From Candidatus Saccharimonadota bacterium (GTDB taxonomy: Bacteria; Patescibacteriota; Patescibacteriia; 2-12-FULL-60-25), in contig JALHOH010000002.1 in the NCBI GenBank assembly GCA_022843095.1, positions 60,001 to 92,000 on the forward strand: a DNA stretch of 32,000 bases. Direction: 5' to 3'. Position 1 is the stretch's first letter. Every line of letters starts with the position of its first letter. Position numbers and translations under genes: made by a program. Positions 4,389 through 26,607 of the stretch are shown one piece after another. Under the pieces are notes generated by a model that was not told the origin of the DNA, made no database searches, and saw only the letters and a program-made list of their open reading frames with translations.

Positions 4389-4961
4389 ATGTTTTCTTCT
4401 GACCTCGCGGCGGACATTTTGGAGCGAATGCATGCACTGGATGCGTCCCGTCGGGCGTTACAGCCCCTTGCGTCGCAGATCTTATCGGGCAGTAAGCGCG
4501 TGATCTTTGCTTGGCAGCGCGATGATGCCGAAGAGGCGGAGTCACAGCTCGAAACGGTGCGCGGGTTTGTGGATCAGGGGGTCGACATGGTGCATGCCGA
4601 GCCACGCCTTGCCGCGGAAGGATCTTGGCGTGCTGCGCTGGAAGAATATGCCGAAGCGGAATTATTTTCGCAGTACTTGCTGACAAACACGATCGCCGTT
4701 CCGGATCGGATTCACGAAGAGCCGGAACTATTTTTAGGTGCGCTTTCGGATGTGTGTGGAGAATTGGTGCGTCGCGCTCAGTTGCTTGCCGCCTCGGGAA
4801 AAACCGAGGACTTAGAGCGGATGTGGGTGGATGTCGAGCAGGCGGTCGCCCTGTTGTTGGACCTCGATTTAACCGGGGGGTTGCGCAGTAAAGTGGATCA
4901 AGCACGCAGTCATCTGCGCCGTTTAGAAGAAATCCGCTATGACCTCGCCATCCGCCGCTAA
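4389..4961 (+). CDS. translin-family protein (bacterial translin-like)
   Basis: The C-terminal half, ELFLGALSDVCGELVRRA...LRSKVDQARSHLRRLEEIRYDLAIRR, parallels human translin DYLSGVLILASELSRL...LRKRYDGLKYDVKKVEEVVYDLSIRG. Confidence 0.65.
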   Translation: MFSSDLAADILERMHALDASRRALQPLASQILSGSKRVIFAWQRDDAEEAESQLETVRGFVDQGVDMVHAEPRLAAEGSWRAALEEYAEAELFSQYLLTNTIAVPDRIHEEPELFLGALSDVCGELVRRAQLLAASGKTEDLERMWVDVEQAVALLLDLDLTGGLRSKVDQARSHLRRLEEIRYDLAIRR

Positions 4962-19845: not shown

Positions 19846-19920
19846 TCCGGGGTAGCTCAGCGGTAGAGCAGTGGACTGTTAATCCATTGGTCCTGGGTTC
19901 GAATCCCAGCCCCGGAGCCA
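19846..19920 (+). tRNA. tRNA-Asn (anticodon GUU), CCA encoded
   Basis: Manual cloverleaf: acceptor tccgggg/ccccgga, D-arm gctc-agcggta-gagc, anticodon arm gtgga-CTGTTAA-tccat, variable tggtc, T-arm ctggg-ttcgaat-cccag, discriminator G, then CCA. Confidence 0.9.
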
Positions 19921-20214: not shown

Positions 20215-21912
20215 TTACGACCACTCGGCAGCGTTTAGCAAGTCGAGATCTTTGTAGGTAACGGAAGCCGCCGGATGGGCGTATTCGATCACCTGCGCAC
20301 GAATAAACCCCTTGACAAAGGTCATGCCGGGCGGAAGATCGCGTCCAAAGGACTCGTAGTAAGCCTTCCGGGCTTCTTCACCTGCTTTCTGTCCGATGCG
20401 CAGTCGACGAGGAAAGCTGCGAACGTTGACCTCTCTCGTCACGTTCTGTCCGTCTTGCCCCGTTTTATGCCAGGAATGGCGTTCTCGGACGATGGAGTTT
20501 GCGGCGATAATGCGGAAGTACGCATCGACCACCGTGTATTCGAGGAGGGCGGCGAGAGTTTCCACTTCGTCCGCGTGCTCGCCGCGTATAACGATTTCCG
20601 GATGGACCTTGAGCTCAAGGTTTCGGAGCTCGGTCCGGAAGGTGATCAACGTAGGTGTCTCTTGCCGTACCACGATATCCACTCGAGTATCGGGGAAGGT
20701 GTAGCCCTCGGGGCGGAAAACGAAGCCCCGGATCCCGGCGTTTCGGAGCGCCGTGACCCCGACCTCTACGGAATCCTCACCGTTGGGGCGCAGAGTGCGC
20801 AGCGTCTTCCCAAGAATGGCCTGGGTCCGACGATCGAACTGCTGTTCGATCTCGTGACTATTCTCTTTGAACCAGTTGATGGTGCGTTCGCCGGTCTCGC
20901 GTTTTTTAAGCATCTGTTCGCGATGACGATCACGCCACTCTCTGAATTTGGTTGCGAACGGCTCTTGGATGCGCAGGCAGGGCTGGAAAGTGTACGCGGC
21001 GCGCTCCCGAAGAACTTCCAGGTCTTTTTCAGGCAGCTCTTCCTTTGCTCGCAGGAAGCCCGGATGCGAGCACGCCTCCTCTGGATGGTCATCGTAATCA
21101 TCGAACGCCTCATACCAAGGCTGATGAAGGACGAAGGCGGCGATATGCAGCAACGAAGACAGGATTTCTTCGGCTGCGTAGGATGTAGGCAACGCCTCGA
21201 TGATGCGTTCAAGCCATGCCTTTTGGGCTTGCTTGAGGTTAACCACTTCTTCTCCCAATTCCCCTTCCTGAAGAAGGGGTGCTTCATTGATAGAGTCTTG
21301 CAGGAATCCAAGGGCCCCACTCATCAACTCGACACTGTGGTTGTTTTCGAGTTGATCCGGCCTAACGGGTCCATGGCGAAGGTCTCCCTCCCAGGTGGAG
21401 ATGATGCTAAGAGCAAAGGAGAGTGCTTTATCGCACGAGACGCCTACCTGCCTTAGAAAAGCTTCCTGGAATTTGAAGAGCCCTCGACCCATGAGCCACA
21501 CCATCTGTGACTTAAGATCGCCATCCGAATCCAATCCTTTTGTCAGGACGTCCTCTCCGCGAGACCTGCTGTAGGCGAGAAAAAAGAGCTCAGGATTCTT
21601 GTTGGAAAGAAGCTGTTCCGCGATGGTGTCATGGAGTCGGTTGACACGCTTCGCGGTCTTGGACTCTTTCACCTGCTTTACCAAGGCGGCGTACTCCTCC
21701 TCACTCATCGGGTTCCCGCGCATCTCTCGCTCCAGGCATGGAACCAGGAGCTGCATGAGAGCGAGTTCGAGTTCTATGCAGACGGTCTCGAAGCGTTTCA
21801 GGCGCACATTTGCATCTGGAATTTCAAGGAGATGCGTGAGGATGCGGTGAAGCCATTTTTCGCTTTTACTATCCGAGAGGTAGCGCTTGAGATCGTGCTT
21901 GATGTTGGTCAT
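20215..21912 (-). CDS. 565-aa orphan protein; helical N-terminal two-thirds, C-terminal region with PD...ExK-like motif (function unknown)
   Basis: This is the longest ORF at the locus and has a natural amino-acid composition. Its ATG lies 2 nt after the stop of the upstream 131-aa gene (TAACCATG). I recognise no family. The motif FPDTRVDIVV...x...LELKV spans aa 407-435 (20608-20694). Confidence 0.7.
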   Translation of the reverse strand: MTNIKHDLKRYLSDSKSEKWLHRILTHLLEIPDANVRLKRFETVCIELELALMQLLVPCLEREMRGNPMSEEEYAALVKQVKESKTAKRVNRLHDTIAEQLLSNKNPELFFLAYSRSRGEDVLTKGLDSDGDLKSQMVWLMGRGLFKFQEAFLRQVGVSCDKALSFALSIISTWEGDLRHGPVRPDQLENNHSVELMSGALGFLQDSINEAPLLQEGELGEEVVNLKQAQKAWLERIIEALPTSYAAEEILSSLLHIAAFVLHQPWYEAFDDYDDHPEEACSHPGFLRAKEELPEKDLEVLRERAAYTFQPCLRIQEPFATKFREWRDRHREQMLKKRETGERTINWFKENSHEIEQQFDRRTQAILGKTLRTLRPNGEDSVEVGVTALRNAGIRGFVFRPEGYTFPDTRVDIVVRQETPTLITFRTELRNLELKVHPEIVIRGEHADEVETLAALLEYTVVDAYFRIIAANSIVRERHSWHKTGQDGQNVTREVNVRSFPRRLRIGQKAGEEARKAYYESFGRDLPPGMTFVKGFIRAQVIEYAHPAASVTYKDLDLLNAAEWS

Positions 21913-21914
21913 GG

Positions 21915-22310
21915 TTAGCCTTCTTTCTTTTGAGTGTTGGTTTTTTGATGGAGATGGATTCGAAGCTCGGCTTCTGTGTGGTAAGTCGCTTGGAGGTTTT
22001 TTAGGAACTCTATAAAGGTTGGCTTATCCTTTTCTGGCATGGCTCGGTACACGGTAACGAGCTTAGCCATATACCGCTTGAGGGTTTGGGGTCCGATGCC
22101 AACGCTCGGTGCAGGCTTCGAACAGAGATGCGCCACCTCCCTACATTGGAGTGAGAACTCTACGGGTCGTTCCTTGTAAGCGGCGGCCAGTTCTGGTTTT
22201 GTGCTTGCAGCCCAGCGAGCGAAGTCGTTCTTGGTGACCCCGATCAGTTCCGGGCGCAATCCGGTCCATTCCAGATATACGGCGATCAGCTCGTCCAATG
22301 AGATGGTCAC
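21915..22310 (-). CDS. 131-aa small protein with helix-turn-helix-like segment (putative regulator/DNA-binding)
   Basis: The segment VGIGPQTLKRYMAKLVTVY resembles an HTH. The gene is first in the minus-strand operon, is translationally coupled to the 565-aa gene, and faces a divergent AT-rich control region. Confidence 0.55.
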   Translation of the reverse strand: MTISLDELIAVYLEWTGLRPELIGVTKNDFARWAASTKPELAAAYKERPVEFSLQCREVAHLCSKPAPSVGIGPQTLKRYMAKLVTVYRAMPEKDKPTFIEFLKNLQATYHTEAELRIHLHQKTNTQKKEG

Positions 22311-22390
22311 GATGATTCCTCGTGTTGAGAAGGTTCGTTTTCTGGGCTAGATGCTCAGAATAGTTCCTATTCAAGGGCATTTTTTATTAT

Positions 22391-22439
22391 TTGTCAACGG
22401 TGCTTTTATGGCAATTCGTCAGTGGGTATCGATTGACAA
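22391..22439. promoter_or_regulatory. inverted heptamers in divergent control region (candidate operator/promoter elements)
   Basis: TTGTCAA (22391-22397) and its reverse complement TTGACAA (22433-22439) sit in the AT-rich 198-bp gap between the divergent operons. Both also resemble -35 hexamers. CAGTGGGTATC lies at 22420-22430. Confidence 0.35.
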
Positions 22440-22508
22440 AACCGCATTTTTCGTCTCAAACTAGCGTCAGTCCATTGGACAACTAAACAAGCAGAAAGGC
22501 AGGTCTGT

Positions 22509-25500
22509 ATGGCAGCCCTGAAAAATAAGGGTCATATGCTGGCCCTGATCCGCAAAAGCAAAATCCCGGAAGAGGAAAAGAGAGCGTTTCTCGCAGAGCT
22601 GGTCCGCACGGGTCAAGTCACCGAGGACGATCTCGCTCGCTCCATCCTTGAAGATGTACGAACGAACTTTGAGGACTACAAGCAGCAGTTCGCGAGCGAT
22701 GAAATGTTGACATTCCTTTGGGAGCGGTTCAAAGACCATCCTGAAATGTTGGCTAGGGCACTCGTGAAAGCGCGCCCGGACATCTTCTATGTCTACGGGT
22801 TGGCGATCCGCCTTGTCCTTAAACTCCGTGCGGAACTTGGAAAGGTGCTGGTCAAGCCGAAGCTTGGGAATGGGGGCGGCGTCCGAGACATCGCGCCGTC
22901 CCCGAAGCTACCGCAGGCGGTTTCACAAGACATCATCGCCCTCGACGTGGAATGCCGATTTCGCGAATCGCTGTTCTTCTTTAGCCGGGACGTCGAGATT
23001 GGGAGGGAGTTCATCCGCGAAGAACTCGGCCGAGCCAAGGGTCCGTACGAGCGCCAGGTGTGGGAAGGTGTGCAGATGCTCGTCGCCCAGCTTCTCGATC
23101 TGCCGTATCCGGGCGTGAAAACGGAATTGAACGGCAAGATGTTTCCTGCCATGCATGTGCGTTGGTGGCACTACCTTGCCGCCGACCTGAAACGCGTCCT
23201 CAACATCGGCGACACGGGAAGCTATAAGACTTCTTTTGCCGCCATTGCGATGCGCCGGGCGGGTTGCCGTAGGACGCTTGTCCTTGCGGCTCCTCATGCG
23301 CGCGAGAATTGGCGCAGGGAACTCGGCCTCTACTTCGAGGAACGTCCGTCCGTTCAGATCGTATCCGGCGTCGAAGACGTCGATGATCTGCACCCGGAAG
23401 CGGACTTCGTCGTGATTGGATACTCGACCCTCGTTGAAAAGGGGGTCGTGGAAAAGCTGATCGCGCAAAAGTTCGACGGTCTCATCGAGGACGAGTGTCA
23501 CTATACGCGTAACGTCGTGGATTCCCCGGCGAAGCGCGCGCTCGCTAGGATGCGACTCGTCCAAGAGCTGCCGCTCGATCGCTACCTCGCGCTTTCGGCG
23601 ACGCCTTGGGAGAACCGTCCGGAAGAGATGGCGAGCTTGGCCTCGGCACTGCGACCCGATCTTTTTCCAACGCCCGAGGTGTTCCTGGGTAGCGGAGCGG
23701 CGAGCAGTCCGCGTCTCATGCGGGAGTTGTTCGCCGGGCAAATTCTCGACATCGAGCTGCGCGAAGTTACGGACATGCCGGAGATCACACCCAAACCCTG
23801 GGAGGACCTCTGCCCGTCCGTGACTGTTCGTCCCAATCGTCAACATCTCGCCTTTTATCGGCGGGTACTGGATGATGAAGAAGAATCCCTCGAACCGCAC
23901 CAAAAAGTGCAGCGACTCCTCATGGCCGCCATCCATCCGCCACTTCTTGCGCGCAAGCTCAAGAAGTGGACGGATCCGCCTCGCGCGAACGATTGGAAGT
24001 TGTCGAGCAAGCTCGTGTGGTTAAAACAATTCGTTACGGAGCGGATTGGTACGCAGAAAATCGTCATCGCGAGCGGGCTCTATGCCTCAGGGATCACACA
24101 TCCTTCCGAGATGGAGGATATGGAAACCGAGTGGGTAGGCGGAATTCTCCGCGCCTGGTTTGGCAAGGAGACCGTCGTAACCATCGACGATACGGTCGGT
24201 CTCGGCGCTCCCGAGGGTGGATTGTCGCCCCGGGACCGAGCGATCCAGCGTTGGCGAACGGATCCGAGCGCCAGGATTCTGCTCATCTCGAGCCAGTCGT
24301 GTCCGGATTCGGTCAACCTGTCGGTTGGCAAGCTGCCGGGCGTCGAGGGGCTTGCGATCACCTTCCTGTCCTTCGGATGGAAGCCGTGGAAGCAATTCCT
24401 CGGCCGCTTCTTCCGGTACGGCCAAGGAGTGCCGATCACTTTCGTCTATCCGGTCGTGGCAGGCACGATCGACGAGGACCTGCTCCGCCTGAACCGCGAG
24501 AAGTGGCAGGCGCAGCTCTTGTTCCGCGCCGGCGCGCCTCTCACGGATGATGAATGGCGGGCGTTGCAAAGCGAAAACGGCGAAGCGATTCAGCGTCTCA
24601 TGCGGGACGCTTCCGATCATGTCGCCATCCTCTTCAACCAGATGCGCGGAGAAGGGGAGCGTGCCTGCCGGGAAATCCTGGACCAGGCGTACGGGGCAGT
24701 TTCTGCGGAGGAGGCGCTTGCCATGCACTTCCTCGCTGCGCAGGACTACTCCATGAGCGGGCATATCTCGCGCTTCCAGAAAACTGTGATTGAGCAATGG
24801 ATCGCCTGTGGTCTCATTACTCCGACGCGGATTCTAGATGCGGGATGCGGCCCCCTTACTCTTGAACGGAGGCTCTTCCTTCCAGTATACGGTGTGGACC
24901 TCAACCGTCACATGCTCGAACTGGGATCGGGGCTCTCGTCGCACCATGGCGTCAATGCCACGGTCGGTCGGTTGTCCGAGCTTCCGTCCGAATGGAAAGG
25001 GAAGTTCGAGCTTACGGTTGCGACCATGGTCCTCGACCTGACGAGCTTGAAAGAGCCGTCCCATGGTGAACCGGAACGTGTGCGCATCTTGCAGGAGCTT
25101 GTGCGGGTCACGGATCCGCATAGCCTCGTCTGGCTTACGTGGAGCTATAATTGCCACACGCCGGAAACTTTTCAGGCGTGGGTTGAGGCGTTGGAGCAAG
25201 CGGGTTGCAAGATCCGTTCCGAGCTCACAGGCCTCGTCCAGGCAACAGACCATGAAGAACAGCCGTGTGAATTCTGGTCTTTGGCGTTTTCGCCCCATGG
25301 GAAGACGCCGACCTTCGTTCGTCCCGAACTTCTTAGGTTCGCCTTCGAGATCGAGAGGATGAAGGATCGGAAAGGAGGGGTGGCGAAACCACCGAAACCT
25401 CCAAAGACCAAGAGGCGTGTCGCGCACGAGCGCTTCGCTGTCACGACCGCGACCGGTCAGCTCACCGACGTGGATGCGGCGAAAGCGGCTGCCTTGAACG

Positions 25501-25634
25501 AGCTGCTGCGATGGATGAACGCGGGCGTGCAGACGCGGAAACTGCACCCGGCGACCATTGATCTGGCCGCGCATTTCGCCCGCGATTGGCGTGTTCTCCG
25601 TGCTCTCCAAGAGCAGGGACTGATCACCCTGTGA
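22509..25634 (+). CDS. SNF2-family (SF2) ATPase/translocase fused to a C-terminal class I SAM-dependent methyltransferase domain
   Basis: Helicase motifs are motif I GDTGSYKTS (23208-23234), motif II DECH (23490-23501), motif III LSATPWEN (from 23592), the C-lobe ILLISSQSCPDSVNL, and motif VI QFLGRFFRYGQ (24393-24425). MTase motifs are motif I ILDAGCGPL (24831-24857), then VYGVDLN and ELVRVTDPHSLVWLTW. A basic linker KPPKPPKTKRR is followed by a C-terminal helical domain. Confidence 0.85.
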   Translation: MAALKNKGHMLALIRKSKIPEEEKRAFLAELVRTGQVTEDDLARSILEDVRTNFEDYKQQFASDEMLTFLWERFKDHPEMLARALVKARPDIFYVYGLAIRLVLKLRAELGKVLVKPKLGNGGGVRDIAPSPKLPQAVSQDIIALDVECRFRESLFFFSRDVEIGREFIREELGRAKGPYERQVWEGVQMLVAQLLDLPYPGVKTELNGKMFPAMHVRWWHYLAADLKRVLNIGDTGSYKTSFAAIAMRRAGCRRTLVLAAPHARENWRRELGLYFEERPSVQIVSGVEDVDDLHPEADFVVIGYSTLVEKGVVEKLIAQKFDGLIEDECHYTRNVVDSPAKRALARMRLVQELPLDRYLALSATPWENRPEEMASLASALRPDLFPTPEVFLGSGAASSPRLMRELFAGQILDIELREVTDMPEITPKPWEDLCPSVTVRPNRQHLAFYRRVLDDEEESLEPHQKVQRLLMAAIHPPLLARKLKKWTDPPRANDWKLSSKLVWLKQFVTERIGTQKIVIASGLYASGITHPSEMEDMETEWVGGILRAWFGKETVVTIDDTVGLGAPEGGLSPRDRAIQRWRTDPSARILLISSQSCPDSVNLSVGKLPGVEGLAITFLSFGWKPWKQFLGRFFRYGQGVPITFVYPVVAGTIDEDLLRLNREKWQAQLLFRAGAPLTDDEWRALQSENGEAIQRLMRDASDHVAILFNQMRGEGERACREILDQAYGAVSAEEALAMHFLAAQDYSMSGHISRFQKTVIEQWIACGLITPTRILDAGCGPLTLERRLFLPVYGVDLNRHMLELGSGLSSHHGVNATVGRLSELPSEWKGKFELTVATMVLDLTSLKEPSHGEPERVRILQELVRVTDPHSLVWLTWSYNCHTPETFQAWVEALEQAGCKIRSELTGLVQATDHEEQPCEFWSLAFSPHGKTPTFVRPELLRFAFEIERMKDRKGGVAKPPKPPKTKRRVAHERFAVTTATGQLTDVDAAKAAALNELLRWMNAGVQTRKLHPATIDLAAHFARDWRVLRALQEQGLITL

Positions 25635-25719
25635 ACCCAATGACGGATCCCGTTCCGCGTGGGATTCGTTTGCCTCCTTAGATCATGCCTTCGAAACGTC
25701 TCAACTTTCTAGAGGTGTC

Positions 25720-26337
25720 ATGGCTAAAAAGGTTCAGGTAAACGATGATGGTTTCTTCCGTCGCGAGCATGACGTGCTCGCCAAAGACCTGCTTGGCCGC
25801 AAGGTCAAACTCGACGCGACGTTCTTCTACATCCTCGAAGCCGAAGGCTACCCGGCGGAGAAGAACGGCGGCCTCTACGAACCGGTCATGAAGATGTCTC
25901 CCGGAGGCATCTTCTGCCCGAAGTACCACAATCACTGCCTCCTCTTGATTGCTTGCCTTTCGAGTGGGTCGATCGGAGGATGTGTCCTTGTGCGCGCCAT
26001 TGAGCGAGCCGACGGGCGTATGATCAAGCGTCCTGGTCTGGTCGCCCAGGACCTCGGCATCGAGGACCACGGTGTCACAGGTACCATGCACGAGCGCGAC
26101 GGAGTGCTGGGGTTGGGTCTGAACGGGGCTAATCCGCCGACGATCGAGCCCGTGACGACCAGCGCGCCCACCGGCGTGAGCCAGGCGGAGATCCAATCTC
26201 GCATGGGTAAGATCATGAAGGTCTATCAGGAACGCCGAAAGGCGGATACGGCGCTGACCTTCGAGGTCTTCCTCAAACAGTGCTTCGCCTGCAAGACTCC
26301 GCGCGCGCTCGGCCTGATGCTGAACGAATCGGTATAA
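25720..26337 (+). CDS. divergent alkyladenine/3-methyladenine DNA glycosylase (AAG/Mpg family)-like protein with C-terminal extension
   Basis: The protein is collinear with human AAG. FFRREHDVLAKDLLGRKV matches FFDQPAVPLARAFLGQVL. ILEAEGY (25831-25851) matches IVETEAY, which carries the catalytic Glu. MSPGGIF...GGCVLVRAIE matches MKPGTLY...GACVLLRALE. An RBS GAGG lies 5 nt upstream of the ATG. Confidence 0.6.
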   Translation: MAKKVQVNDDGFFRREHDVLAKDLLGRKVKLDATFFYILEAEGYPAEKNGGLYEPVMKMSPGGIFCPKYHNHCLLLIACLSSGSIGGCVLVRAIERADGRMIKRPGLVAQDLGIEDHGVTGTMHERDGVLGLGLNGANPPTIEPVTTSAPTGVSQAEIQSRMGKIMKVYQERRKADTALTFEVFLKQCFACKTPRALGLMLNESV

Positions 26338-26426: not shown

Positions 26427-26573
26427 CTATTTAGAAGAGTTAATTTGATAGGGGAAAATCGTGTATGATTTGTCTGATTTCCCTCGTGACCCACGTGCGT
26501 AAAATGCCGTCGTAAAAACCTCCAAGGATCCTTCCTAAACCGAGTTCACCACCCGCCCGTTGAGCCACGCGAG

Positions 26574-26607
26574 ACCGATCGTCGCAAGACGGTCGGTTTT
26601 GCATTTT
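26574..26607 (+). terminator. second, orphan intrinsic terminator about 55 nt upstream of the next gene
   Basis: The stem accgatcgtc-gcaa-gacggtcggt has 10 bp including one G-U pair and is followed by TTTTGCATTTT. No annotated plus-strand gene ends just before it. Confidence 0.6.

Follow-up and report, generated by a model that had tools for sequence, protein, structure and literature searches.

A possible tethered base-recognition subunit related to Mpg/AAG in an SNF2-methyltransferase gene module of Patescibacteria

Introduction

Several described bacterial systems, including Type ISP restriction-modification, DISARM (DrmD/DrmMI) and Dpd (DpdE), combine a superfamily 2 (SF2)/SNF2 motor with an S-adenosylmethionine (SAM) methyltransferase and small accessory proteins, and to our knowledge none of these systems includes an Mpg-like subunit. 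Glycosylase-based anti-phage defense is represented by Brig1. Here we describe gene D, which encodes a 205-aa protein, in a 32,000-nucleotide (nt) stretch of DNA from Candidatus Saccharimonadota (the window; GenBank assembly GCA_022843095.1, contig JALHOH010000002.1, positions 60,001 to 92,000 of the forward strand). Gene D appears to join a head domain related to alkyladenine DNA glycosylase (AAG; Mpg) to a tail domain shared with other proteins of its neighborhood, and it follows gene C, which encodes an SNF2-type ATPase together with a predicted class-I SAM methyltransferase. We tentatively propose, with somewhat less than even confidence, that D is a tethered base-recognition subunit of an SNF2-methyltransferase module in the ultra-small bacteria of the Candidate Phyla Radiation (CPR)/Patescibacteria, serving as a reader or in another non-canonical role.

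The module, whose four genes we designate A to D, resembles Type ISP, DISARM and Dpd systems in its composition and in the fast evolution of its partner genes. In a related locus, L001 (L-numbers label related loci), A has 556 aa (37% identity to the window copy, E = 7e-73), B has 125 aa (39%) and D has 216 aa (55%), whereas C, with 1040 aa, is 78% identical. The module differs from those systems in having no nuclease, TGT or PLD partner and a methyltransferase without DNA-methyltransferase motifs, and in that its relatives were not found in phage or plasmid collections (none of C in viral contigs or plasmid records, none of D in phage or plasmid records). Searches of PADLOC-DB v2 gave no matches for A and D, a weak match of B to an orphan methyltransferase model (oMTase, E = 0.021) and weak matches of C to DpdE (E ~ 1e-3) and PDC-M27C (E = 0.01), with no significant defense-model match for any of the four proteins. 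Brig1 and Escherichia coli TAG provide a conceptual precedent for a glycosylase-fold effector and for acid-free excision of cationic methylpurines, but their folds are unrelated (uracil-DNA glycosylase-like and helix-hairpin-helix, respectively), and they have neither a motor-methyltransferase partner nor a tail. No description of the D family or of the module was found in the searchable literature. The D head is a variant of a known fold family, while the tail domain, the gene arrays that combine heads with tails and the module of four genes are previously undescribed and have no entry in Pfam, NCBIfam, PADLOC or PHROGs.

Gene D and its relationship to Mpg/AAG

Gene D is an ATG-initiated open reading frame (ORF) on the plus strand at 25720..26337, and the sequence quoted for it in an earlier first-pass annotation of this DNA is exact. 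It is a real gene rather than a chance ORF, with orthologs down to E = 1.7e-63; an exhaustive HMMER search with D returned 136 representatives at E <= 1e-3, of which 68 reach E <= 1e-10. The protein is divided into a head, a linker and the shared tail. On the combined evidence of PF02245, hhalign and an AlphaFold2 (AF2) model with a predicted local distance difference test (pLDDT) score of ~97 in this region, the head (residues ~10-135, 25747..26124, plus strand) is a truncated beta-barrel of the Mpg/AAG superfamily.

That annotation had assigned D to the AAG fold and proposed alignment to the PF02245 (Pur_DNA_glyco) model as a check, for which the single protein and its family give different answers. 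D itself scores 22.8 bits (E = 6.6e-5), under the 27-bit gathering threshold, and matches profile positions 2-101 of 181 rather than a full-length domain; against the NCBIfam Mpg equivalogs (NF002002/3/4, TIGR00567) it reaches 13-17 bits versus cut-offs of 116-249. At the family level the check succeeds, with 23 of 46 D relatives matching PF02245 at E <= 0.01 (best E = 3.6e-11). It is the sole Pfam family that these 46 relatives match, Formyl_trans_C being unmatched. Comparison of the D profile with human AAG residues 81-298 using hhalign gave a probability of 95.8% (E = 7.6e-9). The numbering of the human sequence used is self-consistent at Glu125, Tyr127, His136, Tyr159, Tyr162, Asn169 and Arg182, and the sequence is partly confirmed by PDB alignment. 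Searched directly against the PDB, the D sequence had no match, and the family profile recovered AAG only at E ~ 0.5. Descent of the D family from the Mpg/AAG superfamily is thus secure at the family level, with homology limited to the N-terminal half, and the superfamily assignment stands. D itself falls outside curated PF02245 membership although the homology holds.

The alignment places D residues 8-117 against AAG 85-229, a span of about 110 residues that carries the shared motifs I-x-E-x-E-x-Y and G-x-C-V-L-x-R-A-x-E. In this register E42 corresponds to Glu125, Y44 to Tyr127, P61-G62 to Pro153-Gly154, F65 to Tyr157, P67 to Tyr159, H70 to Tyr162 and R92 to Arg182. The paired segments are ILEAEGY with IVETEAY, FCPKYHNH with YVYIIYGM, and GGCVLVRAIE with GACVLLRALE, so that the last of these strands is kept, as had been reported. 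A match to AAG "block by block" does not survive, since AAG 133-142 (the His136 loop) and the 186-210 insert are deleted in D and AAG 230-298 has no counterpart. The D family retains the Tyr127 equivalent as Y or F in 94% of its members, and it departs from AAG and Mpg in its half-domain, its substituted pocket tyrosines, its unconserved Glu125 position, its scores below curated cut-offs, its obligate SNF2-methyltransferase linkage and its added tail, a putative docking element.

An AF2 model of D built from the 46-relative alignment (pLDDT 92.8, predicted template modeling score 0.87) consists of a beta-rich head, a linker and a four-helix tail. With both AF2 models, the top PDB matches in Foldseek were the C-terminal barrels of ArnA, Fmt and FDH, at a probability of 0.97-0.99, a modest E-value of ~ 0.015, ~113 aligned columns and a root-mean-square deviation of 3.2-4.2 Å. 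Through this superposition, with its modest E-values, the D head takes the 'FMT C-terminal domain-like' fold of SCOP, which places AAG and the formyltransferase C-terminal barrels in one superfamily. Because the best matches lie in the same superfamily as AAG, the models suggest that the D head is a minimal superfamily barrel from which the AAG elaborations have been stripped. The formyltransferase barrels are similarly minimal in size; D differs from them in having neither a Formyl_trans_C sequence match nor a formyltransferase catalytic domain, and in its genomic context.

These matches raise the alternative that the D head is a formyltransferase-C-terminal-like barrel that binds RNA or tRNA, in a module acting on RNA whose methyltransferase modifies RNA or a small molecule. 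The C-terminal domain of Fmt is a tRNA binder, and the methyltransferase of gene C resembles small-molecule, peptide and RNA-type SAM methyltransferases and has no DNA-methyltransferase motifs. We nevertheless regard an RNA role as unlikely, given that PF02245 and not Formyl_trans_C is what the D family matches, that the motor of C is a bona fide SNF2/Rad54-type dsDNA translocase, and that sister proteins bearing the same tail carry homing-endonuclease-associated repeats, which are taken as DNA-binding.

Two further observations concern the head. A fold search of viral structures (BFVD) with the D head returned only two proteins, both uncharacterized and from giant viruses, A0A3G5A9Y1 (Hyperionvirus) and A0A1V0SB56 (Catovirus), each at a Foldseek probability of 0.99; on these models they may be Mpg- or FMT_C-like. 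In addition, ten separate segments of a 2581-aa protein, P0060, align with D-profile positions ~93-138, so that this protein carries a fragment of the C-terminal strands of the head in repeated form.

Linkage to an SNF2-methyltransferase gene

Gene C (22509..25634, plus strand) encodes a 1041-aa protein in which Pfam, PDB profiles and sequence motifs delimit an SNF2-type ATPase (residues ~220-700) and a class-I SAM methyltransferase (~765-880). In Pfam, PF00176 is matched at the cut-off (and is unmarked in the orthologs), and Methyltransf_11, Methyltransf_25 and Methyltransf_31 fall just under theirs. The C profile matches SSO1653 (1.3e-9), Mot1, Fft3 and ISWI in the PDB as well as generic SAM methyltransferases, and C also matches phrog_62. 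The Walker A, DExH, SAT and motif VI elements of the ATPase and the SAM motif I (LDAGCG) are invariant in five orthologs. We conclude from these motifs and profiles that the motor is a genuine SNF2/Rad54-type dsDNA translocase. The second domain is a predicted class-I SAM methyltransferase whose assignment as a DNA methyltransferase is unproven: its nearest solved structures are small-molecule or peptide methyltransferases, and the (D/N/S)PP(Y/F/W) and C5-methyltransferase (PCQ, ENV) motifs are absent from all five C orthologs. With the motifs of both DNA amino-methyltransferases and C5-methyltransferases missing from C, the earlier suggestion of DNA treated with this methyltransferase as a substrate for D becomes a guess. 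In the closest relative of the window locus, C is split into two ORFs of 605 and 440 aa (L009:5950-9134), which could reflect a frameshift, pseudogenization or an assembly error in a metagenome-assembled genome (MAG).

Genes C and D lie on the same strand, and the gap of 85 nt between the C stop and the D start (25635..25719, plus strand) is as previously measured. From sequence, this spacer holds a Shine-Dalgarno-like element, GAGGTG, directly 5' of the D ATG, and a hairpin of 11 bp at 25642-25670 (-21.8 kcal/mol) with no U-tract and a stability ordinary for its composition (z = -1.1). A terminator consensus scan calls nothing in the spacer, and a strong terminator-like hairpin closing the C-D unit is found only after D (26569..26602, plus strand; a 15-bp stem followed by the U-rich ATTTTGTCT, fold z = -3.6), in agreement with the first-pass description of a weak C-D hairpin that lacks a proper T-tract. 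In other loci the C-D gap is 3-212 nt, always on the same strand.

To assess the distribution of the module, we searched an alignment of C against 185,579 species genomes and a metagenome collection, which yielded 9 and 6 loci, respectively, and supplemented these with look-ups of family members. A D head adjoins a C-like SNF2/methyltransferase gene in all 16 loci that have sequence beyond C, in three architectures. The head-only variants show the pairing as well, with a true C preceding the head in L028, a C-like protein of 1304 aa ahead of two tandem heads in L026 and L027, and a distant SNF2 protein of 1420 aa after the head in L024. The coupling of D to the SNF2-methyltransferase gene, proposed from the window, therefore extends across the family, head-only variants included, and stand-alone orthologs without these neighbors did not appear among these loci.

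Gene order around this pair is variable. The arrangement is A-B-C+D+ in the window and in L009 and A-B+C+ in L023, all four genes are on the plus strand in L001, and the order is A C D B A' in L010. Homology between the window and L009 ends at the module edges (~20,260-26,240). Since homology stops at these edges and the order is reshuffled while the pairing is kept, the module can be regarded as a discrete unit whose genes are functionally linked. It is found at differing chromosomal sites, in keeping with the accessory-module setting that had been suggested.

This distribution bears on whether D is simply an ordinary housekeeping Mpg repair enzyme with a coincidental SNF2-methyltransferase neighbor. 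Two relatives carry the automatic name '3-methyladenine DNA glycosylase Mpg' (one source), and the genes that flank the module in the window are housekeeping genes. We find this explanation hardly credible, because D scores under the Pfam cut-off and far under the NCBIfam Mpg cut-offs, comprises half of the domain with an unconserved catalytic Glu, keeps its C-like neighbor in every locus despite rearrangements, and belongs to an extremely rare family, with C found in 9 of the 185,579 species genomes.

A tail domain shared among module proteins

The first-pass annotation had described the C-terminal extension of D as having no counterpart. This was incorrect, as the same helical tail of ~55 aa ends gene B and other module proteins. 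In D, the tail (residues ~146-205, 26155..26334, plus strand) is delimited by AF2 helices (155-160, 162-175, 181-189 and 194-202) and by profile matches to B-like and HNH_repeat proteins in ten or more loci. It is basic (pI 9.5), is conserved among the ~200-aa members of the family and has no Pfam match. Comparison with the C-terminus of window gene B gave an hhalign probability of 97.4% (E = 1.4e-11; hmmsearch 5e-17), and the B-like genes of L004 and L006 gave 95.2% and 96.7%. Matches to the tail profile are confined to module genes and include D and B in every locus; a search of A and C with the same profile found nothing at E <= 1.

The tail is also present on a 254-aa protein in L002, L003 and L011 and on a 445-aa protein in L013, and L012 has five consecutive tail-bearing genes, of which the extra three encode 441, 488 and 276 aa. 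These extra proteins are internally repetitive and match the homing endonuclease associated repeat PF18780 (E down to 4e-17), a repeat taken as DNA-binding from its family name and associations. The possibility that the tail is itself a further PF18780 repeat is not supported; D has no Pfam match there, and in the repeat proteins the tail profile finds nothing but their extreme C-termini. Taken together, these profile matches suggest that the tail serves as a shared docking handle through which interchangeable heads would reach one partner, most plausibly the SNF2-methyltransferase.

Arrays of three to five tail genes occur at L012:9236-14267, L013:7750-10275 and L002:10001-11904, with middle genes of 254-488 aa, and their copy number differs among related Uhrbacteria genomes. 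In L019 the tail domain instead lies near the N-terminus (residues ~22-88) of two larger proteins (447 and 617 aa) on either side of C and D (L019:493-1833 and L019:5902-7752), which indicates that it is not confined to C-termini.

The lesion pocket and the catalytic position

The first-pass annotation had portrayed D as a glycosylase that retains its catalytic Glu in a remodeled pocket and remains active on a modified, possibly foreign, base. We examined column conservation in 149 family sequences aligned to the D head profile. The window copy does retain E42 (codon 25843-25845), Y44 and R92. In the family as a whole, the column equivalent to Glu125 holds E in 54 sequences (36%), Q in 30, K in 17, D in 17 and R in 10; in the 17 heads verified beside a C-like gene it holds E in eight, D in three, K in three and R, S and Q in one each; and within the clade of the window (window, L001, L009, L010, L020) it reads E, K, K, R, K. 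The catalytic Glu is therefore retained in the window copy and not across the family. Position 40, on the same face, is as variable as position 42, and a shift of the catalytic acid to position 40 was rejected, with an acid at 40 or 42 in 73% of sequences versus 71% expected (permutation p = 0.21). No other conserved acidic column was found in the head among the 149 sequences. With the Glu125 column unconserved and no compensating acid, constraint on this Glu has been lost, and the family is not selected for the general-base glycosylase mechanism of AAG. The invariant ATPase and SAM motifs of C stand in contrast to this lax column in D.

Remodeling of the lesion pocket, in turn, is borne out. 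The His136 loop of AAG is replaced in D by a loop with conserved N49 and Y53; these residues, together with G62, C88 and V89, are 71-93% conserved (n = 149). The Tyr159 position is Pro in D and P, A or M across the family, and the Tyr162 position, at which AAG intercalates into DNA from a beta-hairpin, is His in D and Arg in 51% of the family, where His or Arg would be a plausible alternative DNA plug. The position of Arg182, which binds phosphate in AAG, is R92 in D and R in 47% of the family, and in some other members an R lies two residues away.

D may accordingly be read in another way, as an active glycosylase, either monofunctional or Lys-dependent and bifunctional, that excises a modified or foreign base with its remodeled pocket and is delivered by the SNF2-methyltransferase. 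The register of E42, Y44 and R92 on Glu125, Tyr127 and Arg182 in the window copy favors such an enzyme, as do the E or D at the general-base position in 11 of the 17 context-verified heads, the N49...Y53 motif, with the conservation that a selected binding site would show, the Arg/His plug and the tight linkage to a DNA motor. Lys at the Glu125 position could in principle be compatible with Schiff-base chemistry. On the other side, K, R, Q or S occupies this position in six of the 17 verified orthologs and in four of the five members of the window clade, the head offers neither a conserved acid elsewhere nor compensation at position 40, half of the AAG fold is gone along with the His136 loop and Tyr159, and models of defense systems and glycosylases are unmatched. 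We consider an active glycosylase possible, if doubtful. The D locus is thus more structured than the first-pass annotation saw; its remodeled pocket holds, and its claim of an active enzyme is weakened.

A proposed tethered base-recognition subunit

The reading of D as a base-recognition subunit is favored by the family-level PF02245 matches and the hhalign result, the confident AF2 model with its Foldseek matches to minimal barrels, the shared tail, the unbroken linkage to C-like genes, the retention of the gene set despite inversions and reshuffling, the lack of a terminator between C and D, and the lax Glu column beside well-conserved N49, Y53, G62, C88 and V89. In this model, gene C would form the core, with its SNF2-type DNA translocase and SAM methyltransferase joined in one protein. 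The D head would be a pared-down Mpg/AAG descendant in which the central barrel, the stacking residue equivalent to Tyr127 and, in the window copy, the Arg182 equivalent are preserved. The tail would dock this head onto a shared partner, probably C, through the same handle that B and the repeat proteins use, and the head would then flip or inspect a damaged, modified or methylated purine. Its conserved function would be independent of AAG general-base chemistry. We infer that DNA is the ligand of D, that the base is flipped and that the hydrolytic step is non-canonical or absent.

Several observations weigh against this reading. The window copy, given E42, Y44 and R92, could remain an active enzyme, and the acidic residue in most of the context-verified heads points the same way. 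E. coli TAG excises cationic alkylpurines without a general base and the MUG/TDG glycosylases use Asn, so that loss of Glu in the D family does not prove loss of catalysis and, by analogy, leaves catalysis by D possible. Where N49 and Y53 lie with respect to the pocket is predicted from the alignment only, and binding of the tail to C is likewise deduced from sequence comparison. Head-only variants of 125-146 aa, which have no tail, are still linked to a C-like gene. Finally, human AAG is not among the best 50 Foldseek matches of D.

Partner genes and genomic setting

The remaining genes of the module lie upstream of C on the minus strand. Gene A (20215..21912) is the large module partner, with 565 aa; its family, A1, has homologs beside C in other loci, namely in L001, L009 and L023 and as two copies in L010. 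Gene A has no Pfam, PADLOC, PHROG or PDB match. In other lineages it is replaced by a non-homologous protein, A2; neither family has a match in the libraries searched, and remote homology between A1 and A2 was rejected at an hhalign probability of 0.2%. Gene B (21915..22310) encodes 131 aa, an N-terminal domain of ~65 aa followed by the shared tail, which the tail profile places at about 21930-22118. B-like genes are present in L001, L002, L004, L006, L009, L010, L012, L013, L016 and L023.

The recorded hosts are MAGs of Candidatus Uhrbacteria or Patescibacteria, together with some third-party annotation (TPA) MAGs under other labels. Loci L009, L010 and L017 come from TPA MAGs labeled 'uncultured Gammaproteobacteria'; Patescibacteria/Uhrbacteria MAGs contain the same contigs or gene sets, and the label is probably a taxonomic mislabel. 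In Uhrbacteria the module occupies one syntenic site, between H+-PPase and trigger-factor genes. There it is followed by a conserved gene of 354-363 aa (L002:12054-13124, L006:6655-7719, L013:10375-11466) whose counterpart is absent from the window; the L013 copy has a weak match to DndB, a protein associated with DNA-sulfur modification (E = 0.009).

The window module follows dnaG, rpoD and a tRNA-Asn gene. This tRNA-Asn(GTT), at 19846-19920 between rpoD and gene A, is a typical island insertion site; an island integrated there with intact att repeats was rejected, as the 3' end of the tRNA is not repeated downstream of the module. Downstream of the L001 module, at 1-9 kb (L001:10883-19971), are a 587-aa DUF2326/AAA_23 protein, an HTH_17 protein and a tyrosine integrase, which suggests that this copy lies in or beside a mobile or defense island. 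Elsewhere in the window, at 4389-4961, a 190-aa protein of the Translin family (PF01997, E = 1.5e-11), unusual in bacteria, is encoded amid glycosyltransferase and Mur-ligase genes.

Implications

Gene D appears to represent a DNA-repair glycosylase fold that has been stripped to its core, given a docking tail and tied to a remodeler-type motor-methyltransferase, a combination that we did not find in curated families, defense catalogs or the literature searched. The tail that these proteins have in common implies a plug-in design in which one handle takes varied heads, and this would be a new organizing principle for such machines.

A more speculative and improbable extension is that the module works as a write-and-inspect or write-and-excise machine, in which a non-canonical, motor-borne methyltransferase would set ring-nitrogen methyl marks on DNA and the tethered Mpg-derived head would read or remove them. 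The mark might be N7-methylguanine or N3-methyladenine, the very cationic purines for whose recognition the Mpg/AAG fold evolved, with the tail-bearing subunits (B and the repeat proteins) and the hypervariable A setting the location. If true, this would constitute a new class of modular defense or epigenetic system specific to CPR bacteria.

All four proteins are of a size suited to expression, and what is predicted about a tail-dependent complex, about base binding versus excision and about the chemistry of a methyl mark is directly testable. As CPR bacteria are uncultured and poorly understood, a conserved multi-protein module for DNA transactions offers a concrete biochemical target in these organisms.

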